The position numbers were made by a program, and so were the translations under genes. The notes beneath the pieces are model-generated. The model was not told the origin of the DNA. It saw only the letters and a program-made list of their open reading frames with translations, and made no database searches. A stretch of DNA of 64,000 nt, from assembly GCA_016710165.1 (NCBI GenBank), contig JADJLJ010000005.1, positions 10,937 to 74,936 of the forward strand, in the 5' to 3' direction. The stretch's first letter is position 1; every line of letters begins with the position of its first letter. This stretch comes from Chitinophagaceae bacterium. Lineage in GTDB: Bacteria; Bacteroidota; Bacteroidia; Chitinophagales; Chitinophagaceae. Positions 1-40,852 of the stretch are shown here, one piece after another.

Positions 1-790
1 GCAGTAATTTTCCATCGTTGTTGCTTACCAGCGCCCGTATGTTCAGGCTGCGGGTATTTTCTGAGATCCCCGATTCAGCTGCTATGATCCTGGCCGAATA
101 GGTTCTTGGATTGCCTTCAATGCTGAAGTCAACCGATTGCCCGATCCGGAAGCTGCTGCTGTATTTTTCAGGCAACGTAAAATCCAGTTTCAACTGGCTG
201 TTCTGCCGGATGGTGGTTAATGTTGTTGCGGGGCTGATGTACGCACCGGCGCTTACATTCTTCAAACCCAGTGTTCCGCCAAAAGGGGCCCTTATCTCTG
301 TACGGCTGATGCCGGTACGTACAATCTCCATATCGGCCCTGATGGTGTTTACCTGTAAAGCGCTCAGGTCATACTCCTGCTGGCTCACGCCGTTTATCTT
401 CAGCAGTTCGCCCATGCGGCTTACGGTTTGTTCGGCCACGGCCAGCTGCACCTGTAATTTCTTTAACTGGGCCTGCAGGTCGCCGTCATATATTTTAGCC
501 AATAAAGCCCCCTTGCCTACTGTTTTTCCTTCGTTGATGTTGAGGTAAACCAGCCTGCCGGAGATCTCGGGATGTATCTCTGTTTCCTCGTTGGCAATGA
601 TGGAACCGGGTAATTCGGCCTTGTCGCTAACCATCATGGGTTTAACGATATAGCCCTCCACCTTCATTGCGGTGGGTTTAGGTGCTGCGGGGGCATCGGC
701 TTTTTTATCGCTGCCCTTGCAGGAAATAAGTAAAAAAACGGTAACCGTGATACTGCTAATAAAATAAATGCTGCGGAAGAATATTTTCAC
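1..790 (-). CDS. RND efflux periplasmic adaptor (membrane fusion protein), lipoprotein; 3' end runs off the window
   Basis: Not in the ORF track; translated by hand from GTG at 790: VKIFFRSIYFISSITVTVFLLISC (lipobox)...IANEETEIHPEISGRLVYLNINEGKTVGKGALLAKI...EIRAPFGG. This is the typical MFP lipoyl/barrel-sandwich pattern. Confidence 0.85.
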   Translation of the reverse strand, partial: MKIFFRSIYFISSITVTVFLLISCKGSDKKADAPAAPKPTAMKVEGYIVKPMMVSDKAELPGSIIANEETEIHPEISGRLVYLNINEGKTVGKGALLAKIYDGDLQAQLKKLQVQLAVAEQTVSRMGELLKINGVSQQEYDLSALQVNTIRADMEIVRTGISRTEIRAPFGGTLGLKNVSAGAYISPATTLTTIRQNSQLKLDFTLPEKYSSSFRIGQSVDFSIEGNPRTYSARIIAAESGISENTRSLNIRALVSNNDGKLL

Positions 791-872
791 CTGTTGTTGG
801 TTTGATTCAGGCGATAAATTTAAGCCATATTCACTACCCGGAATCAATTTTTTATATGACCGGCAACTGCCA

Positions 873-2378: not shown

Positions 2379-2460
2379 GCCGGTAAGCTAATGCCGGGCA
2401 ACTAAAAGGGGAAGTGAAAAACAGCATGGTTTTATGTGGTTGTCACCGACTTATTGGGTC

Positions 2461-2482
2461 GTACCTCGACTTCGCTCGGTAC
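2461..2482 (+). repeat. Single hairpin copy of the CTTCGACTTCGCTCAG family
   Basis: GTACC-TCGACTTCGCTC-GGTAC: a 5-bp stem around the family core. Confidence 0.75.
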
Positions 2483-2496
2483 TTGCCGCTTCCACA

Positions 2497-2628
2497 CTTC
2501 GACTTCGCTCAGTGCGGACTTCGACTTCGCTCAGTGCAGACTTCGACTTCGCTCAGTGCGGACTTCGACTTCGCTCAGTGCGGGCTTCGACTTCGCTCAG
2601 TGCGGGCTTCGACTTCGCTCAGTGCGAT
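2497..2628 (+). repeat. Tandem array of 6 x 22 bp (CTTCGACTTCGCTCAGTGCGGA consensus), no spacers
   Basis: Units start at 2497, 2519, 2541, 2563, 2585 and 2607. They vary only in the last 4 nt (CGGA/CAGA/CGGG/CGAT). Confidence 0.97.
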
Positions 2629-2641
2629 TGAGAACTTTTAT

Positions 2642-2649
2642 TATCTTTG
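2642..2649 (+). promoter_or_regulatory. Bacteroidota sigma-A -7 element (TATCTTTG), probably for hppD
   Basis: Matches TAnnTTTG; lies immediately after the tandem array and ~150 bp upstream of hppD. Confidence 0.45.
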
Positions 2650-2795
2650 GATTAATAATGACACCCGATTATCCACATAAACTCTTTTCCGACAAGCGTA
2701 ACAGCTATTCTATGCTGATGCTTACGCTTGCGATGGATTCGGCCGGTTAATTTGAATGCAGCTCCCAGGCTATTTTTTATTTCAAATTAATTACC

Positions 2796-3929
2796 ATGCA
2801 AACAACAACCGTTCAAACCTCAACCGTAAATAACAGCACAACTGATTTTCTTCCCCTGCAGGGAACCGACTATGTAGAGCTTTATGTTGGCAACGCCAAA
2901 CAGGCGGCCCATTTTTATAAAACAGCTTTCGGCTTTCAGTCGGTGGCCTATGCAGGTCCTGAAACCGGCATGAGGGATAAAGTGAGTTACGTGATCCGCC
3001 AGAACAAACTCACGTTTGTGCTGACCACACCGTTAAAGAGCAGTAATCCCATTGCAGACCATATTCATAAACACGGCGATGGCGTGAAAGTGCTTGCCTT
3101 AAAAGTGGAGGATGCCGCCAGCGCTTTTGAAGAAACCACCAAACGGGGCGCCAAAGCATATCTTGAACCAACGGTTTTAAAGGATGCCGATGGCGAAGTG
3201 GTACTGAGCGGGATACATACCTACGGCGATACCGTGCACATCTTTGTGGAGCGTAAGAATTACAAGGGCCTATTCATGCCGGGATTCCGGGAATGGAGGT
3301 CGAACTATAATCCTGCAGAGACCGGTTTGTTGTATGTTGACCATTGTGTGGGCAACGTAGGATGGAACCAGATGAATCCCTGGGTGAAGTTTTACGAGGA
3401 TGTGATGGGCTTCCGCAATATCCTGAGTTTTGATGACAAGGATATATCTACTGAATACTCGGCACTGATGAGTAAGGTGATGAGCAATGGAAATGGTTAT
3501 GTGAAATTCCCCATCAATGAGCCGGCAGAGGGCAAGAAGAAAAGCCAGGTGGAAGAATACCTTGATTTTTACGACGGGGAAGGGGTACAGCATGTGGCCA
3601 TTGCCACCAACGATATCGTTAAAACAGTGACCGAACTGCAAAACAGGGGGGTGGAGTTCTTAACCATCCCGCCCAGTTATTATGAAACCGTTCTGGAACG
3701 GGTTGGCAAGATCGATGAAGACCTGGAGCCATTGCAAAAGCTGGGTATACTGATCGACCGGGACGACGAGGGGTATTTGCTGCAGATATTCAGTAAACCA
3801 CTGGAAGACCGGCCGACACTGTTTTTCGAGATCATCCAGCGCAAGGGCGCCAGGAGCTTTGGTAAAGGGAATTTCAAAGCCTTGTTTGAAGCGCTGGAAA
3901 GAGAACAGGACGCACGGGGAAATCTATGA
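2796..3929 (+). CDS. hppD: 4-hydroxyphenylpyruvate dioxygenase
   Basis: HGDGVK, DHCVGN, FPINEP, GVQHVA, LLQIFSKP and FFEIIQRKG..FGKGNFKALFE motifs. Confidence 0.97.
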   Translation: MQTTTVQTSTVNNSTTDFLPLQGTDYVELYVGNAKQAAHFYKTAFGFQSVAYAGPETGMRDKVSYVIRQNKLTFVLTTPLKSSNPIADHIHKHGDGVKVLALKVEDAASAFEETTKRGAKAYLEPTVLKDADGEVVLSGIHTYGDTVHIFVERKNYKGLFMPGFREWRSNYNPAETGLLYVDHCVGNVGWNQMNPWVKFYEDVMGFRNILSFDDKDISTEYSALMSKVMSNGNGYVKFPINEPAEGKKKSQVEEYLDFYDGEGVQHVAIATNDIVKTVTELQNRGVEFLTIPPSYYETVLERVGKIDEDLEPLQKLGILIDRDDEGYLLQIFSKPLEDRPTLFFEIIQRKGARSFGKGNFKALFEALEREQDARGNL

Positions 3930-28323: not shown

Positions 28324-28638
28324 TCAGTTCAATTGTACTGCCGGCAGCCGGTAAGACTGCCCGTCGTATACAAATAATTCATCAATCTCCACGGTCCAGT
28401 ATTTATACAGGGGCGATTTGCTGAGATAATGCTCCACTTCTTCCTTATTGGGGGCATTGAATACCATCCAGCTGCGCTGGCTTTCCATGCTTACGGTATA
28501 GTAATCAACCACATTCTTTTCGATCAGGCTGTTGATGTAAACCCGGTGAGGGGGCACAAAACTCATGAACGCATCATCCATTTCAAAACGGATGGTAACC
28601 TGGTATTTATTCAATTGGGTATCGTTTATATTTTCCAT
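28324..28638 (-). CDS. Small hypothetical protein (muconolactone isomerase/YCII-like dimeric barrel)
   Basis: HRVYINSL...SWMVFNAPNKEEVEHYLSKSPL pattern; overlaps the mtaB stop. Confidence 0.65.
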   Translation of the reverse strand: MENINDTQLNKYQVTIRFEMDDAFMSFVPPHRVYINSLIEKNVVDYYTVSMESQRSWMVFNAPNKEEVEHYLSKSPLYKYWTVEIDELFVYDGQSYRLPAVQLN

Positions 28639-29909
28639 TCTGCTATTTTATTCTCCCGGTCGGGTTGGTACGGAATTGTTATTTTAATATAGTTATCGGT
28701 ATAGCCTTCCATCATACCGTTCTTGTTAATTGTCTCAAAAAGCACTTTTCTTGTTTCACCAATGTGCTGATTTGTGAAGTACTGCATCTTCTGGTAACTC
28801 AGGTTACGCAGCATTTTATTCCGTTCGTGCCGTACGTTTACAGGAACAACAGGCCTCATTTCTGCTGCCAGTGTATTGCTTCTTTCCGAATACGTGAATA
28901 CATGCAGGTAAGATACATCCAATAGCTGCAGGAAATCAACCGTTTCCATAAAGTCGGCATCTGTTTCACCCGGAAAGCCGACGATCACATCTGCCCCGAT
29001 ACAGCAATGCGGCATTACGGTTTTTATAAGCCCGGTCCTTTCGGCATACAATTCTTTTTTATACCTCCTTCGCATCAGTCCCAGTATCTTGTTGCTGCCG
29101 CTTTGCAAAGGGATGTGAAAATGGGGCATAAACCTTTTACTGTTGCTTACAAACTCAATGATCTCGTTGCTCAGCAGGTTCGGTTCAATGGAAGAAATAC
29201 GAAAACGTTCTATACCCTCTACTTTATCTAACTGTTGTATAAGTGTAAAAAAATTTTCTTTAACCGGGACTTGCTCTAAATCCCCCTTTTGGGGGGTGGG
29301 GGGGCGGAAATCCCCCAGGTTAATTCCGGTCAATACAATTTCTTTTGCTCCCTGTTCAGCGATACTCCGCACATTGGCAATAATGTTGTCGATGCTGTCA
29401 CTCCGGCTTTTGCCCCTTGCCAGCGGAATGGTGCAGAAGGAACAATTGTAGTCGCAGCCATCCTGCACTTTTAAAAATATCCGGGTACGGTCGTTCATGG
29501 AATGGGATGCAGTGAATTCATTCAGGTCACCGATCTCACAACTGCAGATCTTCGTGCTGTCGCCCTTGGTGATCTCTTTCAGGTGTTGCGTGATGTTGAA
29601 TTTTTCTGCAGCGCCCAATACCAGGTCAACGCCGGGTATGGAAGCAATTTCGTTTGGCTTCAGCTGGGCATAGCAGCCGGTGATCACCACCATGGCCTCC
29701 GGCGCTTTACGTTGTATGCGGCGTACCAGCATCCGGCATTCCTTATCGGCATTTTCAGTCACCGAACAGGTGTTGATCACATACACGTCGGCCACTTCAT
29801 CAAAGTTCCTTTTCTCAAAGCCGTCGTTCTCCAGCAACCTGCCAATGGTGGATGTTTCGGAAAAATTAAGCTTGCAGCCCAATGTATGTAATGCCACGGT
29901 CTTGTTCAT
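28626..29909 (-). CDS. mtaB: tRNA t6A37 methylthiotransferase MtaB
   Basis: HTLGCKLNFSE, INTCSVT, KVQDGCDYNCSFC (radical SAM) and LHVFTYSER. Contains an in-frame RPPTPQKGDL insert. Confidence 0.94.
   Translation of the reverse strand: MNKTVALHTLGCKLNFSETSTIGRLLENDGFEKRNFDEVADVYVINTCSVTENADKECRMLVRRIQRKAPEAMVVITGCYAQLKPNEIASIPGVDLVLGAAEKFNITQHLKEITKGDSTKICSCEIGDLNEFTASHSMNDRTRIFLKVQDGCDYNCSFCTIPLARGKSRSDSIDNIIANVRSIAEQGAKEIVLTGINLGDFRPPTPQKGDLEQVPVKENFFTLIQQLDKVEGIERFRISSIEPNLLSNEIIEFVSNSKRFMPHFHIPLQSGSNKILGLMRRRYKKELYAERTGLIKTVMPHCCIGADVIVGFPGETDADFMETVDFLQLLDVSYLHVFTYSERSNTLAAEMRPVVPVNVRHERNKMLRNLSYQKMQYFTNQHIGETRKVLFETINKNGMMEGYTDNYIKITIPYQPDRENKIAEWKI
29281..29305 (+). repeat. CCCC...GGGG(A/G)TGGGGGC element, in frame in mtaB
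   Basis: TCCCCCTTTTGGGGGGTGGGGGGGC. Confidence 0.7.
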
Positions 29910-30032
29910 CGGGGCAAAATTAACGAAAACCAAAATAGAAACGCGGATGATGCTGATGAAACTGATATTCACGGATCATATCTGCTTAAATCCGTGTCAT
30001 CAGCGTTTCTATCAATTAAAGTAACTTGCATC

Positions 30033-30485
30033 ATGCTTAAGAAATACCTCCCTTATATCTTCCTGGTTGCCGCTGCTTTATTGCTGTTCTTCATCAAGAG
30101 AAACCAGCGGGGGGCAGTGCCTGTAAAGCCAGCCACCGGACAGGCCGATAACCGGGTTACCGTTCCGGCAGTAGTGCCTGCCGGCGAAAAACCGGAAGAG
30201 ATCGAAGGTTTCAACAGGAATACGACCAACCTGGTCTTCAGCAAACATGCCAGGTGCAGGATGGATTGCAGGAAGATCGATGAAAGTGAAATACGGGGGA
30301 TATTGAAGAATGGAACCGTGAATAAGAAAAAGATACAGCGGGATAAGCGGGGTATGACCTACCCGGTGGAGGGCACCACGCACGACGGGCAGCGGGTACG
30401 GATCGTTTTTGCTCCAAAAGGCGATGCCCTGGTGGTGGTAACGGTGATCGACCTGGGTAAAGAATGGTCATGCGATTGTAAATAA
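30033..30485 (+). CDS. Membrane-anchored DUF4258-like protein
   Basis: N-terminal TM helix; SKHARCRMDCRKIDESEI...RVRIVFA..VVVTVIDL. Confidence 0.75.
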   Translation: MLKKYLPYIFLVAAALLLFFIKRNQRGAVPVKPATGQADNRVTVPAVVPAGEKPEEIEGFNRNTTNLVFSKHARCRMDCRKIDESEIRGILKNGTVNKKKIQRDKRGMTYPVEGTTHDGQRVRIVFAPKGDALVVVTVIDLGKEWSCDCK

Positions 30486-30556
30486 GTTCCCGTTCATAAA
30501 TCTTCACTTTTCTTAACAATAAAAACAGTGTAAGTTTGTTGCTGAACGGTTGAGTA

Positions 30557-32107
30557 ATGAATATCAAATCCATCCTGGCAAAGCCATTTGCCGGTTATAT
30601 ATACAAACAGATAAAGAAGGGAATGGAAACGGCGGTAGCCGACCAGCAATCTATTTTCAACCAGCTTATAAAAGTCGGCACAAAAACGGTCTTTGGGAAA
30701 GACCATGATTTTGCAAACATACGATCACACGAAGATTTTGTAAGGAAGGTCCCGCTGCGTGATTACGAAGCATTCAGGCCTTACATCGAAAAAATAAAAC
30801 AGGGCACACACAATGTGTTGTGGAAGGGGCAGCCGATCTATTTTTCAAAAACGAGCGGTACCACCAGCGGGGTAAAATATATCCCCATAACAAAAGATTC
30901 CATTCCCAATCATATCAATACGGCCCGGAATGCTTTGTTGTGCTACATGGCCGAAACAGGCAATACAAAATTTGCCGACGGCAAACTGATCTTCTTAAGC
31001 GGCTCTCCTGTCCTGGAAAGGGTAGGCGGAATACCTACCGGCAGGCTAAGCGGGATCGTGAATCACCATGTGCCAAAATATTTACGTGCCAACCAGTTGC
31101 CTTCCTTTACCACAAACTGTATTGATGAATGGGAAGAAAAACTCGATAAGATCGTGGAAGAGACGATCAGCCAGGACATGACACTCATCAGCGGCATACC
31201 CCCATGGATGCAGATGTATTTTGACAGGCTGGTAGAGAAGAGTGGAAAGAAAGTAGGGGAACTGTTCCCTAATTTCAGTGTGATGGTCCAGGGCGGAGTG
31301 AATTTTGAACCGTACAAGGCAAAGTTGTTTGAAAGCATCGGCCGGCAGATCGACTGCATCGAATTGTTCCCGGCAAGCGAAGGTTTTTTTGCTTTCCAGG
31401 ACCTGACTGCCGGCAGGCAAGGTTCGCAAGACAATCCGGGTTTGTTGCTGAATACGAACAGCGGAATATTTTTTGAGTTTGTTCCGGCTGCAGAAATTTT
31501 CAAGGAGGATCCAACGCGGCTGACATTGAAAGACGTTAAAGTGGGAGAGAATTACGCCCTGGTCGTTAGCAGCAATGCCGGTTTGTGGGGATACAATATC
31601 GGCGATACCGTCCGCTTTGTCTCCACCGATCCATACCGGCTGGTGGTTACGGGACGTACCAAACATTTCATCTCGGCTTTTGGCGAGCACGTGATCGGTG
31701 AAGAAGTGGAAGCTGCTTTGCTAAAGGCTGCAGAAGAGGAGAATATCCGGGTCACCGAATTTACTGTTGCCCCGAAGATATCCACCGATGCCGGCAAGAG
31801 CTGTCATGAATGGTTCATTGAATTTGAGAACATGCCTTCCGGCCTGGAAGCATTTGCAAAAAAGATTGATGATAACCTGCGCAACAAAAATGTATACTAC
31901 GATGACCTGGTGGGCGGCAATATTTTACGACCGTTGAAGATCTCACCCATCAGGAAGAACGGCTTCATTGATTATATGAAAAGCATCGGCAAACTGGGCG
32001 GGCAGAATAAAGTGCCCCGGCTGAGCAATGACCGTACCATTGCAGATGAACTTACTCCATTTGTTAATTCTGTTGAAACAGCCGGTCCCTTTTCGGGCTT
32101 GAAATAA
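30557..32107 (+). CDS. GH3 auxin-responsive promoter family acyl-adenylate enzyme
   Basis: SKTSGTTSG.KYIP, FPASEGFFAFQD and YNIGDTVRF...GRTKHFISAFGEH. Confidence 0.9.
   Translation: MNIKSILAKPFAGYIYKQIKKGMETAVADQQSIFNQLIKVGTKTVFGKDHDFANIRSHEDFVRKVPLRDYEAFRPYIEKIKQGTHNVLWKGQPIYFSKTSGTTSGVKYIPITKDSIPNHINTARNALLCYMAETGNTKFADGKLIFLSGSPVLERVGGIPTGRLSGIVNHHVPKYLRANQLPSFTTNCIDEWEEKLDKIVEETISQDMTLISGIPPWMQMYFDRLVEKSGKKVGELFPNFSVMVQGGVNFEPYKAKLFESIGRQIDCIELFPASEGFFAFQDLTAGRQGSQDNPGLLLNTNSGIFFEFVPAAEIFKEDPTRLTLKDVKVGENYALVVSSNAGLWGYNIGDTVRFVSTDPYRLVVTGRTKHFISAFGEHVIGEEVEAALLKAAEEENIRVTEFTVAPKISTDAGKSCHEWFIEFENMPSGLEAFAKKIDDNLRNKNVYYDDLVGGNILRPLKISPIRKNGFIDYMKSIGKLGGQNKVPRLSNDRTIADELTPFVNSVETAGPFSGLK
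31402..31422 (+). repeat. 21-nt in-frame variant of the CCTGCCTGCCGGCAGGCAGG palindrome (encodes LTAGRQG)
   Basis: CCTGACTGCCGGCAGGCAAGG lies between codons for FQD and SQD. Confidence 0.75.
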
Positions 32108-32135
32108 TTTTTGGCCGTTTTTTTTCAAAAAAACA

Positions 32136-32143
32136 TACTTTTG
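32136..32143 (+). promoter_or_regulatory. -7 promoter element (TACTTTTG) for the arg operon leader
   Basis: TAnnTTTG match 25 bp before the leader ORF. Confidence 0.6.
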
Positions 32144-32168
32144 TACTGCAAATAACCATTAACAGCAA

Positions 32169-32264
32169 GTGAACCCTGTTCAAGCACATATTCCTGCATC
32201 TGAACTGCTGCCTACTGCAGGCAGCATGCCCCGGTTCATTTCCCGATGCCGACGTGGATGCTGA
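32169..32264 (+). promoter_or_regulatory. Candidate Arg-rich leader peptide and hairpin (attenuator-like) before the arg operon
   Basis: GTG-started VNPVQAHIPASELLPTAGSMPRFISRCRRGC*, or ATG-started MPRFISRCRRGC* from 32226. Followed by an imperfect hairpin CTGATAGG...CCTGTCAG (32261-32298). Confidence 0.5.
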
Positions 32265-32358
32265 TAGGACGAGCAGTTAAAAGCTGCCCCTGTCAGTGAA
32301 AAAATCCCCGAACCATTTCCTTTAACATCATTTATTATCACGCTTTCAATTGTAAGAA

Positions 32359-33057
32359 TTGGAAAACAGCAACATTATCATCCGGGTTGCCATACCCGCC
32401 GATAAAAAATATGCCCCCGTCATCACCGATGAAATGGCATCATCTGCAAAAGCCCGTGGCACCGGTATTGCCAAACGCAGCCCGGCGTACATCGAACAGA
32501 AGATGGAAGAGGGTAAGGCAGTCATTGCCCTGACCAACTCCGGTGAATGGGTGGGTTTTTGTTATATAGAGGCCTGGGAACACAACAGGTTTGTTGCCAA
32601 CAGCGGCCTCATTGTTTCTCCTGAATTCCGCAAAACAGGCGTGGCCAAAGCCATCAAGAAAAGGATCTTTGAGTTGAGCCGGGAAAAATACCCGGATGCA
32701 AAGATCTTTGGATTGACGACCGGGCTGGCGGTGATGAAAATAAATTCCGACCTCGGCTATGAACCGGTCACGTATTCCGAACTCACCAATGATGAACAGT
32801 TCTGGGCCGGCTGCAAAAGCTGCGTGAACTACGACATCCTGGTGAGCAAAGAGCGGAAGAACTGCATGTGCACCGCCATGCTGTTTGACCCGGCCGATCA
32901 TTTTGAACCGGAAGAGACAAAAGAAGAGTTCAAGAGGCATTCGAAATTGTATGAACGTTTCATGCGCCTGAAGCAAAGCAGGCTGATCGGGTTCCTGCAG
33001 AAGAAACAGGGAGATGGCATGAAGCGGTCATTGCTTGGCCAGTTTTTTAATTTTTAA
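32359..33057 (+). CDS. GNAT-family N-acyl-glutamate synthase candidate (Bacteroidota ArgA-like)
   Basis: First gene of the arg operon; ARGTGIAKRS, VANSGLIV, FGLTTGLAVMKIN and FWAGCKSCVNYDIL. Confidence 0.75.
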   Translation: MENSNIIIRVAIPADKKYAPVITDEMASSAKARGTGIAKRSPAYIEQKMEEGKAVIALTNSGEWVGFCYIEAWEHNRFVANSGLIVSPEFRKTGVAKAIKKRIFELSREKYPDAKIFGLTTGLAVMKINSDLGYEPVTYSELTNDEQFWAGCKSCVNYDILVSKERKNCMCTAMLFDPADHFEPEETKEEFKRHSKLYERFMRLKQSRLIGFLQKKQGDGMKRSLLGQFFNF

Positions 33058-33068
33058 AATCAGTATAG

Positions 33069-34322
33069 ATGATCGCAAATAAAATAGAAACTTCTGGAGA
33101 CTCCCCGCCAGCCGGCGGGGATGGAGGCAAAGTAGTATTGGGTTTCAGCGGGGGGTTGGATACTACGTATTGTGTAAAATACCTCACCGAAGAAAAGGGA
33201 TATGAAGTGCACTCCATCATTGTGAACACCGGTGGTTTTACAGGTGATGAATTGAAGAAAACAGAAGAACATGCATACAAGCTGGGAGTTAAAACACATA
33301 CTACCGTTGATGCTGTTAAAAGTTATTACGACAAGATCATTAGGTACCTGGTTTTTGGAAATGTATTGAAGAATAATACGTATCCCCTGAGCGTGAGTGC
33401 CGAGCGGCTTACACAGGCAGTTTTTATTGCAGAACACGTGCAACACCTGCAGGCAGACATTGTAGCGCACGGCAGTACCGGCGCCGGCAACGACCAGGTA
33501 CGGTTTGATATGATATTTAATATCATGATCCCCGGCGTGGAGATCTGCACACCTATCCGGGATATGAAATTAAGCAGGGAAGAAGAGATCGCTTATTTAA
33601 AGAGCAAGGGAGTGGAAATGAACTTTGAAAGATCCATTTACTCCATCAATAAGGGCCTGTGGGGAACCAGCGTGGGCGGTAAGGAAACCTTAAGCAGCAA
33701 CGGGATGTTGCCCGAAGAGGCCTGGCCAACACCCTTGTCAAAAAAAGGGAATGAGGATCTTGAGTTGGGATTTACCAAAGGAGAATTATACAGCGTGAAC
33801 GGTAAGGCATTTACACATCCATCCGAAGCGATACAGGAAGTTCAAAGGATCGCCGGGCCTTATGCAATAGGCCGGGACATACATGTGGGCGATACCATCA
33901 TCGGCATCAAAGGCCGGGTAGGTTTTGAAGCCGCGGCGCCCATGATCATTTTAAAAGCGCACCATGCCCTGGAAAAACATGTGCTTACCAAGTGGCAGCT
34001 GAACTGGAAAGACCAGCTGGCATTGTTTTATGGCAACTGGCTTCACGAAGGGCAGATCCTTGACCCGGTGATGAGGGATGCGGAAGCCTTCTTTGAGAAT
34101 TCCCAGCAAAATGTGACCGGTAAAGTGTTTGTTAACCTGGCGCCATACCGGTTCCAGGTTACCGGTATTGAATCGAACTATGACCTGATGAGCACTACGT
34201 TCGGTAAATACGGCGAGATGAACAATGGCTGGACGGGAGAGGATGTGAGAGGCTTCTCAAAGATATTCGGCAATCAAACCATGATCTATCACGCTGTTAA
34301 ACAAATGGCAGATGGCAAATAA
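33069..34322 (+). CDS. argG: Argininosuccinate synthase
   Basis: VLGFSGGLDT, AHGSTGAGNDQVRF and YSINKGLWG. The N-terminus carries a SPPAGGDGG insert. Confidence 0.95.
   Translation: MIANKIETSGDSPPAGGDGGKVVLGFSGGLDTTYCVKYLTEEKGYEVHSIIVNTGGFTGDELKKTEEHAYKLGVKTHTTVDAVKSYYDKIIRYLVFGNVLKNNTYPLSVSAERLTQAVFIAEHVQHLQADIVAHGSTGAGNDQVRFDMIFNIMIPGVEICTPIRDMKLSREEEIAYLKSKGVEMNFERSIYSINKGLWGTSVGGKETLSSNGMLPEEAWPTPLSKKGNEDLELGFTKGELYSVNGKAFTHPSEAIQEVQRIAGPYAIGRDIHVGDTIIGIKGRVGFEAAAPMIILKAHHALEKHVLTKWQLNWKDQLALFYGNWLHEGQILDPVMRDAEAFFENSQQNVTGKVFVNLAPYRFQVTGIESNYDLMSTTFGKYGEMNNGWTGEDVRGFSKIFGNQTMIYHAVKQMADGK
33101..33128 (+). repeat. CCCC...GGGGATGGAGGC element, in frame in the argG N-terminus
   Basis: CTCCCCGCCAGCCGGCGGGGATGGAGGC. 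Confidence 0.75.
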
Positions 34323-35289
34323 GATAAAAGCAGGTATAGTGGGTGGTGCCGGTTATACCGGTGGCGAACTGGTAAGGATATTATTGAATCATCCTGCGGC
34401 CGAGATGATTTTTGTACGCAGTAAGAGCAATGCCGGGAATTTCCTGCACAGTGTGCACCAGGACCTGCTGGGAGAAACGGATATGAGATTCGCGGCAGAG
34501 ATGAATGATGATATAGATGTTTTGTTTCTCTGTGTGGGACATGGCGAAGCAAAGACCTTCCTGGAAAAAAATACGATCGGGGATAAGATAAAGATCATTG
34601 ACCTGAGCCAGGATTTCAGGCTGGGCGAATCTGTTAAGCACCGGAAATTCATTTATGGTCTGCCGGAGCTGAATAAAGAAAAAATAAAGGCAGCAGATAA
34701 CGTTGCCAACCCGGGTTGTTTTGCCACGGCTATCCAGTTGGGACTTTTGCCATTGGCGAAGGCTGGTTTGTTGCAGGATATATATACAACGGGCATTACA
34801 GGCTCCACGGGTGCCGGCCAGGCATTGAATGCCACATCGCATTTCAGCTGGCGGGCAAATAATATCCAGGCATATAAAACATTAACGCACCAGCATCTTG
34901 CCGAGATCGGACAGTCGTTCCTGCAATTGAACCCTTCCGGTGATGCAGACCTGAGCTTTATTCCCTGGCGGGGGGATTTTACAAGAGGAATCTTCATCAG
35001 TTCCCAGGTAAAATGTGAATTAAGTATGGAAGAACTGAATGTATTGTATAATGAATATTATGCGACGCATCCTTTTGTATCGCTGAGCGGCGGGTCCATC
35101 TATTTAAAACAGGTAGTGAATACAAATAGATGCTTTATCCAACTGGAAAAAGTGGGTAGTAAGCTTGTTATTCATTCTATCATTGATAATCTATTAAAAG
35201 GAGCAAGCGGGCAGGCGGTGCAGAATATGAATTTAATGTTTGGCCTGGACGAGATGGCTGGTTTGAAACTAAAAGCAAATTATTTTTAA
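34312..35289 (+). CDS. argC: N-acetyl-gamma-glutamyl-phosphate reductase
   Basis: GGAGYTGGEL, ANPGCFAT, GITGSTGAG and DNLLKGASGQAVQNMN. Confidence 0.96.
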   Translation: MANKIKAGIVGGAGYTGGELVRILLNHPAAEMIFVRSKSNAGNFLHSVHQDLLGETDMRFAAEMNDDIDVLFLCVGHGEAKTFLEKNTIGDKIKIIDLSQDFRLGESVKHRKFIYGLPELNKEKIKAADNVANPGCFATAIQLGLLPLAKAGLLQDIYTTGITGSTGAGQALNATSHFSWRANNIQAYKTLTHQHLAEIGQSFLQLNPSGDADLSFIPWRGDFTRGIFISSQVKCELSMEELNVLYNEYYATHPFVSLSGGSIYLKQVVNTNRCFIQLEKVGSKLVIHSIIDNLLKGASGQAVQNMNLMFGLDEMAGLKLKANYF

Positions 35290-35294
35290 AATTA

Positions 35295-35358
35295 ACCGCG
35301 GAGGCGCAAAGACGCAAAGAAAAGATCAGTTAACTCGGCGTCTTTGCGCCTTAGCGGT
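35295..35358. repeat. Intergenic 21-bp hairpin (CGCAAAG family) between argC and argD
   Basis: ACCGCGGAGGCGCAAAGACGC...GCGTCTTTGCGCCTTAGCGGT, with 2 mismatches. Confidence 0.75.
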
Positions 35359-35370
35359 AAAAAAAATAAA

Positions 35371-36501
35371 ATGAAACTATTCGACGTATATCCACTCAAT
35401 GACATCACAATTGAAAAAGCATTGGGCTCTTATGTGTGGGATGACAAGGGTGAAAAATACCTGGACCTCTATGGTGGTCATGCAGTCATTTCCATCGGGC
35501 ATACCCATCCGCATTATGTAAAACGGATAGAAGATCAGCTGCACAAAGTGGGGTTCTATTCCAACTCAATAAAAATACCCTTACAGGTTGAACTGGCTGA
35601 AAAACTCGGGAAGGTCTCCGGTAAGGAAGACTACCAGCTCTTCTTATGCAATTCCGGGGCAGAAGCCAATGAGAATGCTTTAAAGCTGGCTTCGTTCTAT
35701 AATGGAAGAAAAAAAGTGATCGCTTTTAAAAAAGCATTTCATGGCCGGACTTCCCTGGCAGTTGCGGCAACAGATAACCCGAATATCGTGGCCCCGGTGA
35801 ATGAAACAGACAATATCATCTTCCTGCCTTTCAACGATGAAGCAGCGTTGGAAGAAGCCTTTAAGCAAAACGATATTTCATCTGTCATCATCGAGGGAAT
35901 ACAGGGAGTTGGCGGGATCAATGTTGCCGCTGATCCATTTCTCCAAAAGATAAGAACACTGTGTGATCAATATAATGCAGTTTTTATTGCCGACAGTGTC
36001 CAGTGTGGCTATGGGCGTAGCGGAAAATTTTATTCACATGATCATGCCGGCGTGAATGCCGACATATATACGATGGCAAAAGGAATGGGAAATGGCTTCC
36101 CGGTTGCCGGCATTTCCATCTCGCCCAAAATCAAGCCAAAGCACTTCATGCTGGGTACAACCTTTGGTGGCAATCACCTGGCTTGTGCGGCTGCACTGGC
36201 TGTATTGGAAGTGATGGAAGAAGAGAAATTAATGGACAATGCCAGAGCGGTTGGTGAATACCTGGTCAATGAGCTGAAAAAACTGCCAGCAATAAAAGAA
36301 GTAAGGGGGAGAGGACTGATGATCGGAATAGAATTACCCGAAGAGTTAAATGGAGTGAAGAAGAACCTGCTGTTCAAACACAAAATTTTTACCGGGGAAG
36401 CAAAACCAAATGTGATACGCTTGCTGCCTGCTTTGAATATTACCAGGACCGAAGCGGATTTTTTTTTACAGGCCATTAAAACCGAGTTAAACCTGGTCTG
36501 A
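35371..36501 (+). CDS. argD: Acylornithine aminotransferase
   Basis: YLDLYGGHAV, CNSGAEANE, AFHGRT, DSVQCGYGR and MAKGMGNG. Confidence 0.94.
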   Translation: MKLFDVYPLNDITIEKALGSYVWDDKGEKYLDLYGGHAVISIGHTHPHYVKRIEDQLHKVGFYSNSIKIPLQVELAEKLGKVSGKEDYQLFLCNSGAEANENALKLASFYNGRKKVIAFKKAFHGRTSLAVAATDNPNIVAPVNETDNIIFLPFNDEAALEEAFKQNDISSVIIEGIQGVGGINVAADPFLQKIRTLCDQYNAVFIADSVQCGYGRSGKFYSHDHAGVNADIYTMAKGMGNGFPVAGISISPKIKPKHFMLGTTFGGNHLACAAALAVLEVMEEEKLMDNARAVGEYLVNELKKLPAIKEVRGRGLMIGIELPEELNGVKKNLLFKHKIFTGEAKPNVIRLLPALNITRTEADFFLQAIKTELNLV

Positions 36502-36594
36502 CGCCCCGCCTGCCTGCCGGCAGGCAGGTCTGGCCAACGAAGAAAAAACAATTTAAATCATGGTCTGACGCCCTCGTCTGACCAACGAAGAAAA
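36494..36594 (+). repeat. Direct pair of REP-like hairpins; the first copy carries the 20-bp perfect palindrome CCTGCCTGCCGGCAGGCAGG (36509-36528)
   Basis: Copy 2: TGGTCTGACGCCCTCGTCTGACCAACGAAGAAAA. Copy 1: TGGTCTGACGCCCCG[20-mer]TCTGGCCAACGAAGAAAA. Confidence 0.88.
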
Positions 36595-36599
36595 CAGCA

Positions 36600-37553
36600 A
36601 TGCAAAACTTTATCTCAGTAAACGATGTTGAAGATGTGAACGCCCTGGCGGAAAAGGCGTTGGCGTATAAAGCCGATCCGTTTGCCGACCGGAACCTCGG
36701 TGTTGACAAACGGATCGGCTTGTTATTTTTGAATCCGTCACTGAGGACAAGGCTGAGTACACAGGTGGCTGCCATGAACCTGGGAATGAAAGCCATTGTG
36801 CTGAACGTGGACAAGGAAGGCTGGGCGTTGGAATTTGAAGAGGGAGCCATCATGAATGGCGTTACGGTTGAGCACATCAAAGATGCGGCACCAACCCTGG
36901 GCCAGTACTTCGATATTTTATGCATCCGTACATTCCCTGCTCTAAAGAACCGGGAGGAGGATTATGCGGAAACGGTGATCAGCCAGTTCATTAAATATGC
37001 CGGGGTACCTATTGTTAGCCTGGAAAGTGCCACACTGCATCCGTTGCAAAGCCTTACCGATATCATTACCATCAAGGAAACATTTGCAGGAAAGGACAGG
37101 CCAAAAGTGGTCTTAACCTGGGCGCCGCATGTAAAAGCATTGCCGCAGTGTGTGGCCAATTCCTTTGCGCAATGGATCAATGCATGGGGAGAGGCAGACT
37201 TTGTGATCACGCATCCGGCCGGGTATGAACTGGAAGAGGCATTCACCCGTGGGGCAAGCATCACGGCCGACCAGGATGAAGCATTAATAAATGCCGACTA
37301 TGTATATGTAAAGAACTGGAGCAGCTACCACGATTATGGAAAGGTCATCTGTACTGACGCTTCCTGGATGTTGACCAATGAAAAACTGGAGCGCACAAAT
37401 AATGCAAAACTGATGCATTGTTTACCGGTGCGCAGGAATGTGGAACTGGGTGATGACATACTGGATGGCAGCAACAGCCTTGTAACCCGGCAGGCGGGCA
37501 ACCGGGTATGGGCTGCACAGGCCGTATTAAGCGAAATATTAAAGCCGGTGTGA
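36600..37553 (+). CDS. argF: N-acyl-ornithine carbamoyltransferase (ArgF'; probably N-succinylornithine type)
   Basis: FLNPSLRTRLS, EHIKDAA, ESATLHPLQ, LTWAPH and MHCLPVRRNV. Confidence 0.92.
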   Translation: MQNFISVNDVEDVNALAEKALAYKADPFADRNLGVDKRIGLLFLNPSLRTRLSTQVAAMNLGMKAIVLNVDKEGWALEFEEGAIMNGVTVEHIKDAAPTLGQYFDILCIRTFPALKNREEDYAETVISQFIKYAGVPIVSLESATLHPLQSLTDIITIKETFAGKDRPKVVLTWAPHVKALPQCVANSFAQWINAWGEADFVITHPAGYELEEAFTRGASITADQDEALINADYVYVKNWSSYHDYGKVICTDASWMLTNEKLERTNNAKLMHCLPVRRNVELGDDILDGSNSLVTRQAGNRVWAAQAVLSEILKPV

Positions 37554-38368
37554 TGGAAAAATTATTTGTCATAAAGATCGGGGGGAATGTTATTGATGAT
37601 GCAGAGGCATTGCGGTCATTCCTGATTGATTTTGCTGCTGTGGAGGGCAAAAAGATACTCGTTCATGGCGGGGGAAAGATCGCAACATCCATTGGTAAAC
37701 AACTGGGCATTGAGCCGAATTATGTAAATGGAAGACGGATAACAGATGCCGCGACCATCGACCTGGTAACCATGGTGTATGGCGGTTTGCTGAACAAGAA
37801 GATCGTGGCAGGGCTGCAACTGTTCAATTGCAATGCACTGGGCCTGACCGGGGCGGATGCCAATATCATACCAGCAACAAAAAGACCTTTTGCTAACTCC
37901 CCGCAAGCCGGCGGGGGTGGGGGCATTGATTTCGGTTTTGTGGGTGATGTTAACAGTTATCAGTTATCAGTTAGTAGTTTGCAGGTATTTCTTACTAATC
38001 ATCTGGTTCCGGTTGTGGCACCTCTGACCCATGACGGCAAGGGGCAGTTATTGAATACCAATGCAGATACCATTGCTTCGGCCTTGGCCATTGCGTTGTC
38101 GGCACATTATGATGTAAGGCTGATCTATTGTTTTGAAAAGAAAGGTGTGCTGGAGAATGTGGATGATGGGTCATCGGTGATCGGGCTGATAAATAAGGAA
38201 AGATACCAGCAATTGATTGCAGGTAAAAAACTGGCGGATGGCATTCTTCCAAAGATCGACAATGCGTTTGCTGCCATCGACAGTGGCGTAAAAGAAGTTC
38301 TGATAGGTGATGCAAATGATCTGTTGCTGAATGTTACGGAAAATGTAAAAGGAACCCTGTTCCGGTAA
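37553..38368 (+). CDS. argB: Acetylglutamate kinase
   Basis: VIKIGGN, VHGGGK, GRRITD, NTNADTIA and GILPKIDNA. Contains inserts SPQAGGGGG and SYQLSVSS. Confidence 0.95.
   Translation: MEKLFVIKIGGNVIDDAEALRSFLIDFAAVEGKKILVHGGGKIATSIGKQLGIEPNYVNGRRITDAATIDLVTMVYGGLLNKKIVAGLQLFNCNALGLTGADANIIPATKRPFANSPQAGGGGGIDFGFVGDVNSYQLSVSSLQVFLTNHLVPVVAPLTHDGKGQLLNTNADTIASALAIALSAHYDVRLIYCFEKKGVLENVDDGSSVIGLINKERYQQLIAGKKLADGILPKIDNAFAAIDSGVKEVLIGDANDLLLNVTENVKGTLFR
37897..37981 (+). repeat. In-frame G/C element (37897-37924) and CAGTTAT heptamer run (37954-37981) in argB
   Basis: CTCCCCGCAAGCCGGCGGGGGTGGGGGC; CAGTTAT-CAGTTAT-CAGTTAG-TAGTTTG. Confidence 0.75.
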
Positions 38369-39450
38369 TGGATACTGACATATTATATAATGATGCCGTG
38401 GGGTTATTGAAACAATTAATAGCCACGCCTTCTTTTTCAAAAGAGGAAGATAAGACCGCGATGATCATCGGGCAGTTTTTCAGCGACAGGAAAATCCCGG
38501 TTAACCGGCTGCTGAATAATGTGTACTGTGTAAATAAACATTTTGATCCCACGAAGCCGGCCATTTTACTCAACTCACACCACGATACGGTAAGGCCAAA
38601 CCCGCAGTATACAAGGGATCCGTTTAGCCCGGTTATTGAAGACGGGAAACTCTATGGCCTCGGCAGCAATGATGCCGGGGGATGCCTGGTAAGCCTTATT
38701 GCTGCGTTTCTTTTTTTCTACAATAAAGAGAATTTGAAATATAACCTTGTTATAGCAGCGACTGCTGAAGAGGAAATAAGCGGCACAAATGGGATAGAAA
38801 AGTTGCTGGCTTTAGCGGAGTCCGTTTCCCCATTCAGGGAGTTGGGTGGCGCCCTTGTGGGTGAACCCACGCAAACCAATTTAGCCATTGCTGAAAAAGG
38901 GTTGCTGGTATTGGATTGCGTTGCAAACGGTAAAGCAGGACATGCTGCAAGAGAAGAAGGAGTGAATGCCATTTACAAAGCCATGCCTGGTATTGAATGG
39001 TTCAGAACATATCAATTCCCGAAACTATCTGAAAGCCTGGGCCCGGTGAAAATGTCTGTAACCTCCATCAATACGGAGAACAAGGCACACAACATGGTGC
39101 CGGCCATCTGTAGCTTTGTGGTAGATATCCGGGTTACAGATGAATATACGCATGAAGAGATACTGGAAACAATAAAGCATCATGTGAAATGTGAAGTGCA
39201 GCCAAGGAGCATGCGGTTGCGTTCATCCAAAATAGCTGTTGATCACCCCTTGGTAAAGGCTGGCATTATGCTGGGAAAGCAGATCTATGGTTCACCAACC
39301 ACTTCCGATGCAGCCTTGATCCATGCGCCCGTTTTAAAGTGCGGCCCTGGCGATAGCGCAAGAAGTCATGCAGCAGACGAATTCATTTACCTGGAAGAAA
39401 TTAAGGAAGGTATTGAAACGTACATCAACATACTTCAACAAATAATGTAG
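38368..39450 (+). CDS. argE: M20 family acyl-citrulline/acetylornithine deacylase
   Basis: LNSHHDTV, GLGSNDAGG, AEEE, VGEPT and RSHAADE. Confidence 0.9.
   Translation: MDTDILYNDAVGLLKQLIATPSFSKEEDKTAMIIGQFFSDRKIPVNRLLNNVYCVNKHFDPTKPAILLNSHHDTVRPNPQYTRDPFSPVIEDGKLYGLGSNDAGGCLVSLIAAFLFFYNKENLKYNLVIAATAEEEISGTNGIEKLLALAESVSPFRELGGALVGEPTQTNLAIAEKGLLVLDCVANGKAGHAAREEGVNAIYKAMPGIEWFRTYQFPKLSESLGPVKMSVTSINTENKAHNMVPAICSFVVDIRVTDEYTHEEILETIKHHVKCEVQPRSMRLRSSKIAVDHPLVKAGIMLGKQIYGSPTTSDAALIHAPVLKCGPGDSARSHAADEFIYLEEIKEGIETYINILQQIM
38827..38850 (+). repeat. Degenerate CCCC...GGG element, in frame in argE (SPFRELGG)
   Basis: TCCCCATTCAGGGAGTTGGGTGGC. Confidence 0.5.
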
Positions 39451-39475
39451 ATCATTCACCATAAATAAAAATGAA

Positions 39476-40852
39476 ATGGTAAACTCAGAAAGCGCTGGCT
39501 CCCCTTTAGGGGATGGGGGTATGAAACTCTGGCAAAAAGAAAAAGCATCATTGAAGGAAGTGGAGCAGTTCACTGTTGGCAATGACAGGGAACTGGATAT
39601 CTATCTTGCCCCCTTTGATGTATTGGGTTCCCTGGCACATATCAAAATGCTGGAGTCGGTTGGGTTGTTATCAGAAGATGAGTTGCAGTCATTGGAAAAA
39701 GCGCTGAAAGAGATCTATGCACAAATAACAAGCGGCCGTTTTAAACTGGATGAAGGGGTGGAGGATATTCATTCGCAGGTGGAGTTGATGCTTACGCAGA
39801 AACTGGGCGATGTTGGAAAGAAGATCCACAGCGCCCGGAGCAGGAACGACCAGGTATTGGTTGATCTGAAACTATATATGCGTGGTGAGATCGAAAAACT
39901 GGTTGTATCAACAAAAGGGTTATTCGATCTGCTGATTGCCCAAAGCGAAGAATACAAAGACGATCTGCTGCCCGGTTATACACACCTGCAGCTGGCCATG
40001 CCTTCTTCTTTCGGTTTATGGTTTGGAGCCTATGCCGAAAGCCTGGCAGATGATATGCTCACCCTGGAAGCGGCTTACCGGGTGGTAAATAAAAATCCAT
40101 TGGGTTCGGCGGCCGGTTACGGTTCATCATTTCCCATCAACCGGCAAATGACAACGGACCTGCTGGGTTTTGATGCCCTGAACTATAACGTGGTGTATGC
40201 GCAGATGGGCAGGGGCAAAACAGAACGTATCGTTGCATCGGCTTTGGCAAATATAGCAGCCACCCTTTCCAGGCTGAGCATGGATGCCTGCCTCTATCTC
40301 AACCAGAATTTTGCCTTTATCTCTTTCCCCGAAGAGCTGACCACGGGCAGCAGCATCATGCCCCATAAAAAAAATCCGGATGTATTTGAACTCATCCGCT
40401 CTCATTGCAACCGCATCCAGGCATTGCCTAATGAAATTATGCTGATGACCACCAACCTGCCGTCGGGTTATCACCGTGACCTGCAGCTGATAAAGGAACA
40501 CATTATCCCTGCTTTTGAAAATTTGCAGCACTGCCTGCAAATGACCCACTTGATGCTGGCAAACATCCAGGTTAAAAAAGACATTCTTAAAGACGAAAAG
40601 TACGCACTGCTTTTCAGCGTGGAAGAGGTAAATAAGCTCGTGCTGCAGGGAATCCCTTTCCGGGATGCATATAAAAAAGTGGCAGCGGATATTGAACAGG
40701 GGAAATTCAGTCCCACACAGACTTTGCAGCAAACACACGCCGGTTCAGCCGGTAATCTCTGCAATGATGCGATCCGGCAAATGATGGATGATATTATCCA
40801 AAAGTTCAATTTTACTAAAGTGAAAATTGCGTTGCAACAATTATTAAGTTAG
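39476..40852 (+). CDS. argH: Argininosuccinate lyase (alternative start 39521)
   Basis: HSARSRNDQV, LPGYTHLQ, PLGSAAGYG and TGSSIMPHKKNPD. Confidence 0.96.
   Translation: MVNSESAGSPLGDGGMKLWQKEKASLKEVEQFTVGNDRELDIYLAPFDVLGSLAHIKMLESVGLLSEDELQSLEKALKEIYAQITSGRFKLDEGVEDIHSQVELMLTQKLGDVGKKIHSARSRNDQVLVDLKLYMRGEIEKLVVSTKGLFDLLIAQSEEYKDDLLPGYTHLQLAMPSSFGLWFGAYAESLADDMLTLEAAYRVVNKNPLGSAAGYGSSFPINRQMTTDLLGFDALNYNVVYAQMGRGKTERIVASALANIAATLSRLSMDACLYLNQNFAFISFPEELTTGSSIMPHKKNPDVFELIRSHCNRIQALPNEIMLMTTNLPSGYHRDLQLIKEHIIPAFENLQHCLQMTHLMLANIQVKKDILKDEKYALLFSVEEVNKLVLQGIPFRDAYKKVAADIEQGKFSPTQTLQQTHAGSAGNLCNDAIRQMMDDIIQKFNFTKVKIALQQLLS
39499..39520 (+). repeat. CCCC...GGGGATGGGGGT element immediately before the canonical argH start (MKLWQK at 39521)
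   Basis: CTCCCCTTTAGGGGATGGGGGT; in frame as SPLGDGG if translation starts at 39476. Confidence 0.75.

Follow-up and report, generated by a model that had tools for sequence, protein, structure and literature searches.

Short in-frame insertions in the arginine genes of a Chitinophagaceae bacterium are probably lone terminal repeats of a DUF559 nuclease cassette

We describe five copies of a short G/C-rich hairpin element in and around the arginine biosynthesis genes of a Chitinophagaceae bacterium, within a 64,000-nt stretch referred to below as the window (C5:10937-74936 of the source genome, G000, which comprises 4.0 Mb in 13 contigs). Four copies are clean and one is decayed; all lie on the plus strand, are built of a C-run, a loop, a G-run, two nucleotides and a second G-run, and are found in mtaB, argG, argB and argE and directly 5' of argH. 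Comparison with related genomes identifies the element as a terminal inverted repeat from a cassette encoding a DUF559 nuclease and not as an autonomous palindrome. We consider it probable, at about two chances in three, that the five copies are lone right-hand terminal repeats of this small cassette family, seeded locally and tolerated as disordered loops.

Window elements match the ends of a DUF559 cassette

The ArgB relatives of the source genome belong to Ferruginibacter and other Chitinophagaceae and are for the most part metagenome-assembled genomes (cited below by G and L numbers). In Ferruginibacter relatives the motif ATAACTCCCCTTYAGGGGATGGGGG forms the terminal inverted repeat of a cassette of ~490 bp, whose 25-nt ends have the form ATAACT-CCCC-TTYA-GGGG-AT-GGGGG, in which a further G-run comes after a C-run/G-run hairpin. 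Between the ends lies an open reading frame (ORF) for a Vsr-like DUF559 protein of the PD-(D/E)XK fold (PF04480, E down to 2.4e-38). The cassette occupies the exact argF'/argB junction in 14 of 92 genomes and is bounded there on both sides by the motif in every case; in L084, L086, G013 and G011 the bounding sequences are inverted copies of the same 19-25-mer. Its left end is translated as the C-terminus of ArgF', while the nuclease ORF has its own ATG and no stop, and reads via the right end into ArgB (...NNSPSGDGG-KLFVIKIGG). In cassette-bearing relatives, L084, L086, L005 and L109 among them, argB lacks its own start codon, ArgF' terminates within the left repeat, and the sole open frame is a DUF559-ArgB fusion of ~430 aa. 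The nearest relatives of the source genome, G053 and G055, both carry the cassette at this junction. In the source genome the argB ATG overlaps the argF' stop, and its junction is thus of the 'empty' type.

The window elements correspond to the right end of this cassette, in a short form of ~19-27 nt or a long form of ~45-54 nt. The long forms (in argG, at argH, in a GltD-like protein and, in relatives, at the first of two insertion sites in ArgB) add the preceding K-(I/V)-E-T-S-N-N codons of the right-end region; the leader of the argG copy, K-I/V-E-T-S-N-N-S-P, matches that region, and both the argG insertion (54 nt) and the argH insertion (~45 nt) exceed the hairpin in length.

Across 41 congeners, the number of DUF559 genes and the number of motif copies rise together (Spearman 0.66). 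Most of the DUF559 matches listed genus-wide fall within open frames that span several hundred to 1300 aa, with an internal stop in only four entries, which argues that the nuclease is being kept intact. The source genome has two DUF559 cassettes, in frame inside LeuRS (C2:~252060-252610) and MetRS (C1:~1406000-1406450, minus strand), both bounded by inverted G/C-rich hairpin ends with the same architecture as the window motif and a different sequence.

The five copies and their empty sites

The region of interest contains mtaB on the minus strand and an operon of the order GNAT-argG-argC-argD-argF'-argB-argE-argH. The copies and their host genes, in window coordinates, are as follows.

29277..29307, plus strand: copy in mtaB, TAAA TCCCCC TTTT GGGGGG T GGGGGGG CGG (relaxed-pattern match 29281-29307), antisense to mtaB, reading RPPTPQKG
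33075..33128, plus strand: copy in argG, long-form insertion of 54 nt, ANKIETSGDSPPAGGDGG, placed after codon 2
37895..37924, plus strand: copy in argB, short-form insertion AAC + TCCCCGCAAGCCGGCGGGGGTGGGGGC, reading (N)SPQAGGGGG at ArgB 'site 2'
38828..38850, plus strand: decayed copy in argE, CCCC ATTC AGGG AG TTGGGTGG C (CCCCATTCAGGGAGTTGGGTGG), reading (S)PFRELGG, the 'PFRG.GG' frame of the element
39476..39520, plus strand: copy abutting the native start codon of argH, with its own in-frame ATG (MVNSESAGSPLGDGG) and a perfect core CCCCTTTAGGGGATGGGGG at 39501-39519
28626..29912 (start approximate), minus strand: mtaB, TIGR01579 at 418 bits, above the curated NCBIfam equivalog cut-off
33069..34322, plus strand: argG, argininosuccinate synthase models at E = 1e-82, strong but below cut-off
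37553..38368, plus strand: argB, TIGR00761 above cut-off
38368..39450, plus strand: argE, an ArgE/DapE family deacylase, ArgE/DapE-family models strong but below cut-off
39521..40852, plus strand: argH, taken from the conserved start codon, TIGR00838 above cut-off

A first-pass annotation of this DNA had proposed one consensus for all five copies on the plus strand. That consensus finds three exact matches in the window (33102-33128, 37898-37924 and 39500-20; none in 100 shuffles) and the mtaB copy under a relaxed pattern, but the argE copy fails both patterns. The latter lies at edit distance 3 from CCCCTTCAGGGGTTGGGGG, through three 1-nt insertions, a class with 28 matches in the genome against ~4 in second-order Markov genomes, and it coincides with a 6-codon insertion missing from eight of eight aligned orthologues and from G053 and G055; on the strength of this excess and of the coincident insertion we accept it as a decayed copy. 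Folding gives hairpins of -3.6 to -10.6 kcal/mol for the four clean copies and -2.0 for the decayed one, and of the copies in the window only that in argG stands out from shuffled sequences. The insert peptides quoted in the earlier annotation are correct, with a qualification for SPLGDGG, which had been assigned to ArgH: the copy sits 5' of the conserved argH start (ATG 39521), and the peptide would be translated only from the in-frame ATG at 39476. Peptides predicted from filled sites would include ...RPFANSPQAGGGGGIDF... and MIANKIETSGDSPPAGGDGGK.

Ancestral presence of the peptides in orthologues had been named as an outcome that would speak against insertion; alignment yielded unfilled orthologues for each of the five copies. 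The mtaB site is filled, in diverged form, in G012, G001, G011, G053 and G055, and empty (DFGKGxxGGKK) in eight other orthologues. At argG, comparison with G053 and G055 places the 54-nt insert after codon 2, with the native ATG kept; the site reads ATG AGY AAG|AAA GTT in G053, G012, G004 and G005, which have no insert, and the NCBIfam ArgG profile match begins only at residue 20-21 of the protein. The insert is also present in G055 and G001, where its loop is canonical or near-canonical TTTA-type. Its hairpin and G-tail core (33102-33128) carries the variant loop GCCAGCCGGC, giving CCCC-GCCAGCCGGC-GGGG in the source genome against the canonical CCCCTTTAGGGGATGGGGG in G055.

The argB insertion, GCT AAC|TCC CCG CAA GCC GGC GGG GGT GGG GGC|ATT GAT, is a net gain of 27 nt and is absent from 13 GTDB relatives and from 77 of 92 orthologues; the unfilled site 2 has the form AAA AGR CCN GTN AAR GAA|ATT GAT. 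The same ArgB loop is filled in 14 of the other 92 Chitinophagaceae orthologues, with identical boundaries in L086 and L087. A V-to-F change beside the insert is common to the source genome and L086; in L084, the sister of L086, the site is unfilled. None of the relatives compared has the argE or the argH copy, and in G055, G053, G001 and G009 the argH start, ATG AAR CTN TGG CAA AAA (MKLWQK), is preceded by short, unrelated spacers. Judged from these sequence comparisons, the mtaB copy, which a small clade has in common, is probably the oldest, those in argG and argB, which the nearest relative has as well, come next, and those at argE and argH are the youngest.

A dispersed repeat family

Copies were counted with a Myers bit-vector scan, using simulated genomes, second-order Markov genomes included, as controls. 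At an edit distance of up to 3 from the TTYA-loop consensus CCCCTTYAGGGGWTGGGGG, the source genome has 74 loci and simulated genomes have 3-6; of the 74, 11 are perfect, 19 are at distance 1 and 16 at distance 2. Inclusion of other subfamilies (ATAGGGG tail, CGGAGGGGG tail, CCCCTCTCC arms like those of the TMECO repeat of Escherichia coli, and GCCAGCCGGC loops) brings the family to ~99 copies in 73 loci. About a third of the copies are intergenic and the remainder are read in frame, the opposite of the lack of intergenic copies and of excess frequency that the first-pass annotation had listed as grounds for rejecting a mobile element. The motif is thus a repeat family and not an arg-specific signal. 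Outside the arg genes, in-frame copies occur in ValRS, PGK, AroC (chorismate synthase), MiaB, a GltD-like protein and the C-terminus of MetRS, and at the N-termini of MurC, MurG, DapB, a thiolase and an epimerase. Copies often lie 0-15 nt 5' of start codons on the sense strand. About ten inverted pairs, 70-170 bp apart, enclose AT-rich interiors that are unrelated to each other, and many such gene-less pairs are present in G052 and G050 too. Of 41 congeners, 24 lack the 19-mer and 17 carry 2-92 copies of it, while a reversed-pattern control gave no copies in any genome.

Several individual loci may be recorded here. MetRS of the source genome ends in a lone copy (...SSPLGVGGQT*). A perfect 19-mer at C2:588389 presumably lies just past the 3' end of the 23S gene, antisense to the rRNA, as we read it by eye. 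The MiaB paralogue (C1:937060-937175) contains a gene-less inverted pair of ends (APPPPKGG...PPSEGFGEA), which occupies the same structural loop as the mtaB copy (VDSY|YQAPPPPKGG and LGDF|RPPTPQKG); both have the unusual CCCCCCCACCCCCC variant, and the shared loop may reflect site preference or conversion between paralogues.

Local clustering

The arg/mtaB stretch, with five loci in 10.3 kb, is the only place in the 4.0-Mb genome with at least four (permutation P = 0.002). The arg contig of G011, 12.9 kb long, has five perfect copies. Together with the association between cassettes and lone copies in argB, which is weighed below, these figures lend support to the local spreading that the first-pass annotation had suggested. 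ArgB sites 1 and 2 are patchily filled and empty across the genomes, with 13 and 10 changes, respectively, on a maximum-likelihood tree.

A smaller second cluster at C1:1571843-1574478 contains four copies within 2.7 kb, mainly of the CGGAGGGGG subfamily, at positions which we take, by eye, to be the N-termini of MurC and MurG. In L097, three perfect copies upstream of the cassette (positions 703, 817 and 931) are spaced by exactly 114 nt, and look like a tandem array of a longer unit.

Tolerance and maintenance of the inserts

In-frame copies in ArgB, ArgG, ArgE and MtaB, as well as in unrelated proteins elsewhere in the genome, bear out the earlier proposal that the element extends proteins in the manner of Rickettsia palindromic elements (RPEs). 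In an AlphaFold model of ArgB with a mean predicted local distance difference test score of 89.9, the only stretch scoring below 50 is residues 116-122, inside the 9-residue insert (116-124), which sits at a tip between two strands; a tolerated disordered loop is the best reading of this model. A loop that brings a TAG codon into a given frame cannot persist there, so that coding copies use the SP.G.GG or PFRG.GG frames, or stop-free loops.

The element is also conserved as DNA. At ArgB site 1, in eight genomes, third-codon identity is 83% in the element core compared to 54% in host codons at invariant residues, which suggests that the DNA motif is constrained, or renewed by conversion or re-invasion. 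A 10-nt loop, GC(C/A)AGCCGGC, has replaced the 4-nt TTTA/TTCA loops at two orthologous sites (argG and argB) and is seen in the PGK copy as well. From the sequences compared, these loops are a lineage-specific change at two sites that were already occupied, and such a parallel change at two orthologous copies is consistent with renewal.

Proposed history and alternatives

In the history that we propose, the arg operon of the genus would be a recurrent home of the cassette, and the source genome would have lost its cassette there, or never fixed one, and kept five lone ends. The DUF559 nuclease would act on the ends or on empty targets, and repair would copy the whole cassette, or an end alone, into nearby DNA. 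[quoted passage not shown] Such lone ends could come about when repair of a nuclease-induced break copies part of an end, by local transposition or by internal deletion. Within coding DNA, selection would retain only in-frame, stop-free copies in permissive surface loops or at N-termini, and the survivors would be translated as flexible S-P-x-G-x-G-G peptides, which may remain in the mature proteins.

Several points weigh against this history. The source genome has no DUF559 cassette with ends that match the window motif, its two cassettes having TMECO-like or other hairpins, and yet its copies at argE and argH seem to postdate the divergence from G053 and G055. No DUF559 gene accompanies the 16 motif copies of G050, and a single one the 58 copies of G045; motif-rich genomes with few or no DUF559 genes mean that the nuclease could be a passenger. 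A lone copy inside argB is seen in 12 of the 14 genomes that bear the cassette and in 8 of 79 others, but the Fisher p of 2e-8 is naive and uncorrected for ancestry, and a phylogenetically independent-pairs test, which points in the same direction, has only three supported pairs. The ArgB tree is weakly supported, so that a single origin with many losses is possible for both ArgB sites. The boundaries of the argB insertion show no target-site duplication. Moreover, the nuclease activity of the cassette protein and its cut site are putative, and translation of the insert peptides is predicted from the frames.

One alternative is that the hairpins are an independent family resembling REP/REPIN sequences and moved by another enzyme, for example a Y1 (RAYT/IS200-like) transposase, with DUF559 genes as passengers between repeats. 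Lone ends and gene-less pairs do far exceed cassettes in number, G050 has its 16 copies with no nuclease gene, and the source genome encodes a Y1_Tnp protein (PF01797, E = 2.8e-26). The Y1 gene, however, is flanked by its own GTAG-tagged array (GTAGCCCCATCAGGGCGYCATTTTG, x8) and not by the motif, which has neither a GTAG nor a CGTC tag; nor would passengers readily account for 14 cassettes at one conserved junction, each with the motif on both sides, for the covariation of motif and DUF559 counts in 41 congeners, or for DUF559 frames that stay open. We regard this explanation as unlikely. A different possibility dispenses with a dedicated mobility enzyme altogether: ordinary homologous recombination and gene conversion, from strain to strain and from copy to copy, would account for most of the spread and persistence of the motif, Ferruginibacter lineages exchanging filled argB and argG alleles while dispersed copies homogenise each other. 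The patchiness of ArgB sites 1 and 2 fits such exchange, as do the V-to-F flank common to the source genome and L086 next to an empty L084, the replacement of TTTA and TTCA by the same 10-nt loop at two orthologous sites, and silent sites that are more conserved in the core than in host codons. Exchange leaves unexplained the initial occupation of new sites like argE and argH, for which no donor allele was seen in relatives, the range of 0-92 copies among congeners, and the inverted-repeat ends around a nuclease gene. As the whole account it is quite unlikely; as a second process alongside the seeding of lone cassette ends, recombination or conversion is compatible with what we observe.

Host function is a poorer candidate still. 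A cis-element whose mRNA or DNA structure tunes expression of the arg operon, or a selected flexible linker, could explain why many copies lie just 5' of start codons in the sense orientation, why the core is conserved at silent sites and why several genomes show repeated hits on the arg operon. But most orthologues, close ones included, lack the insert and have intact enzymes; positions within the operon vary between genomes; the host genes do not share a function; no copies are present in 24 of 41 congeners; one copy is antisense in an apparent 23S-5S spacer (identified by eye); and TMECO/PIT relatives showed neither promoter nor terminator activity in E. coli (PMC4666352). We consider it very improbable that the motif is such a host element and not selfish DNA.

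Three more specific identities were considered and rejected. A Shine-Dalgarno-like or other 5'-UTR (untranslated region) regulatory motif was dropped in view of the empty orthologue sites, the unrelated hosts and the 0-92 copies among congeners, and an ArgR box or other arg-specific regulator site in view of a motif that is G/C-rich, genome-wide and absent from most arg operons. RAYT/REP identity was set aside because the Y1 transposase that is present has its own GTAG-tagged repeat array: at C5:203900-204509, the gene (PF01797, at C5:204165) is preceded by eight tandem GTAG-tagged REP-like units, which form a separate system.

Comparison with known systems

None of the known systems with which we compared the source-genome elements shares its defining sequence or enzyme features with them. 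RPEs are ~100-150 bp long, specific to Rickettsia and have no associated enzyme gene (Ogata et al. 2000, reviewed in PMC10969869). Like them, the elements described here are small palindromic repeats inserted in frame in unrelated housekeeping genes, at sites that are empty in orthologues, translated in permissive places and found between genes as well; unlike them, they measure 19-54 nt, form the repeat ends of a nuclease cassette and are found in Bacteroidota. RPE membership is excluded on size and taxon (Chitinophagaceae), and not by direct alignment to RPE sequences.

The architecture is that of the BoxC/PIT/TMECO repeats of E. coli and other bacteria. TMECO has the consensus CCCTCNCCC N3-6 GGGNGAGGG N3 GGGNGAGGG with 9-nt arms (Holder et al. 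2015, PMC4666352); it is always intergenic in E. coli, its authors found no mobility gene nearby, and it has no known enzyme (PMC4666352). Both kinds of repeat consist of a C-run, loop, G-run, short spacer and second G-run, with potential for a class II C-G*G triplex, both frequently form inverted pairs, and both are linked to local genome variability. All clean window copies and the genome-wide census have the three-block architecture, but in the window copies the arms are 4-7 nt long and the second loop 2 nt, which departs from the TMECO consensus. Within the source genome that consensus is approached by other subfamilies only, for instance at C4:61412 and in the ends of the LeuRS cassette, where CCCCTCTCC-CTTG-GAGAGGGG-CC-GGGGGTGAGG almost fits. 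The copies described here also differ in being translated inside genes and in bounding a nuclease ORF.

Ssn is a GIY-YIG single-strand nuclease, and no in-frame coding insertions of its NTS/SRM repeats are reported (Chenal et al. 2025, PMC11893778). There too a small nuclease gene lies between copies of a hairpin repeat of which many dispersed copies exist, and the link was argued, as here, from flanking and from co-occurrence across genomes, for which we have the 14 cassettes and the Spearman coefficient of 0.66 in 41 genomes. The partner here matches PF04480 and is a putative PD-(D/E)XK Vsr-like DUF559 protein rather than a GIY-YIG enzyme, and its cassette is read through in host frames. REP/REPIN sequences are extragenic short palindromic repeats, lone or in inverted pairs, that flank a single-copy RAYT gene (PMC3733652). 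The likeness lies in short palindromes, lone or paired, that flank an enzyme gene; the enzyme here is not a Y1 HUH transposase, the 5' flank of the motif is (A)TAACT or variable in place of a tag, and the repeats around the Y1 gene of the source genome are a different, GTAG-tagged array.

As in MITEs, terminal inverted repeats surround a short non-coding core in many copies (~10 pairs of 70-170 bp), but there is no target-site duplication at argB, and the internal gene is a DUF559 nuclease and not the transposase of a parent insertion sequence. A proven homing endonuclease, I-Bth0305I, belongs to the Vsr/DUF559 clade (PMC3424549). With homing endonucleases and inteins the cassette shares a selfish nuclease gene in conserved genes, patchy presence at one site and possible co-conversion of flanks; it differs in that the insert apparently stays in the protein, in its hairpin inverted repeats and in the lone ends left behind. 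The LeuRS and MetRS inserts are bounded, by eye, by hairpin repeats and Pro/Gly linkers, and inspection by eye, with no formal search run, revealed no intron or intein splicing apparatus around the insertions.

Our literature searches turned up no account of hairpin-ended DUF559 cassettes or of lone in-frame ends derived from them. What is new here is the clustering of lone-end micro-insertions around a cassette locus, the two recurrent hot sites in ArgB and the conservation at DNA level. A wider proposal is possible, though we hold it only tentatively: DUF559 nucleases with C-run/G-run/G-run hairpins may form a distinct, undescribed class of mobile cassette, one that is translated through host frames, seeds in-frame lone ends nearby and re-invades or converts occupied sites. 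Re-invasion or conversion would explain the repeated hits on the two ArgB loops and on the MiaB/MtaB loop; and since the ends share the BoxC/PIT/TMECO architecture, such a cassette would supply the missing partner enzyme and the origin of those repeats.

If the five copies are indeed lone cassette ends, essential enzymes of a common soil and freshwater lineage (ArgB, ArgG, tRNA synthetases, PGK, AroC, MurC and MurG) carry inserts of 7-18 residues that are by-products of a selfish nuclease cassette and not adaptations. This would bear on the interpretation of indels in alignments, on the origin of new loops and on the annotation of gene starts, as several copies lie at or before start codons. 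The enzyme puzzle of BoxC/PIT/TMECO would become testable, given a 25-nt end and a nuclease that are both defined and empty sites that occur naturally, and the two ArgB hot sites, patchily filled across 92 genomes, would offer a system for the study of homing-like dynamics.

Other repeats in the arg operon

Outside the operon, an inverted-repeat scan of window 600-2900 yielded a single weak pair, which sets the locus at 873-2628 apart from the family described here. Two spacers of the operon contain repeats of other kinds. In the argD-argF' spacer (window 36494-36594) there are two copies of another repeat (TGGTCTGACGCC...GTCTGRCCAACGAAGAAAA), the first of which is split by a perfect palindrome of 20-odd nt (CCTGCCTGCCGGCAGGCAGG). 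The argC-argD spacer (window 35290-35345) holds an inverted repeat, GGCGCAAAGACGC ... GCGTCTTTGCGCC, in place of which G055 has an insert of ~450 nt flanked by repeats of its own; its product, read by eye with no family search, we take to be a four-helix-bundle protein of the 23S-rRNA intervening-sequence type.

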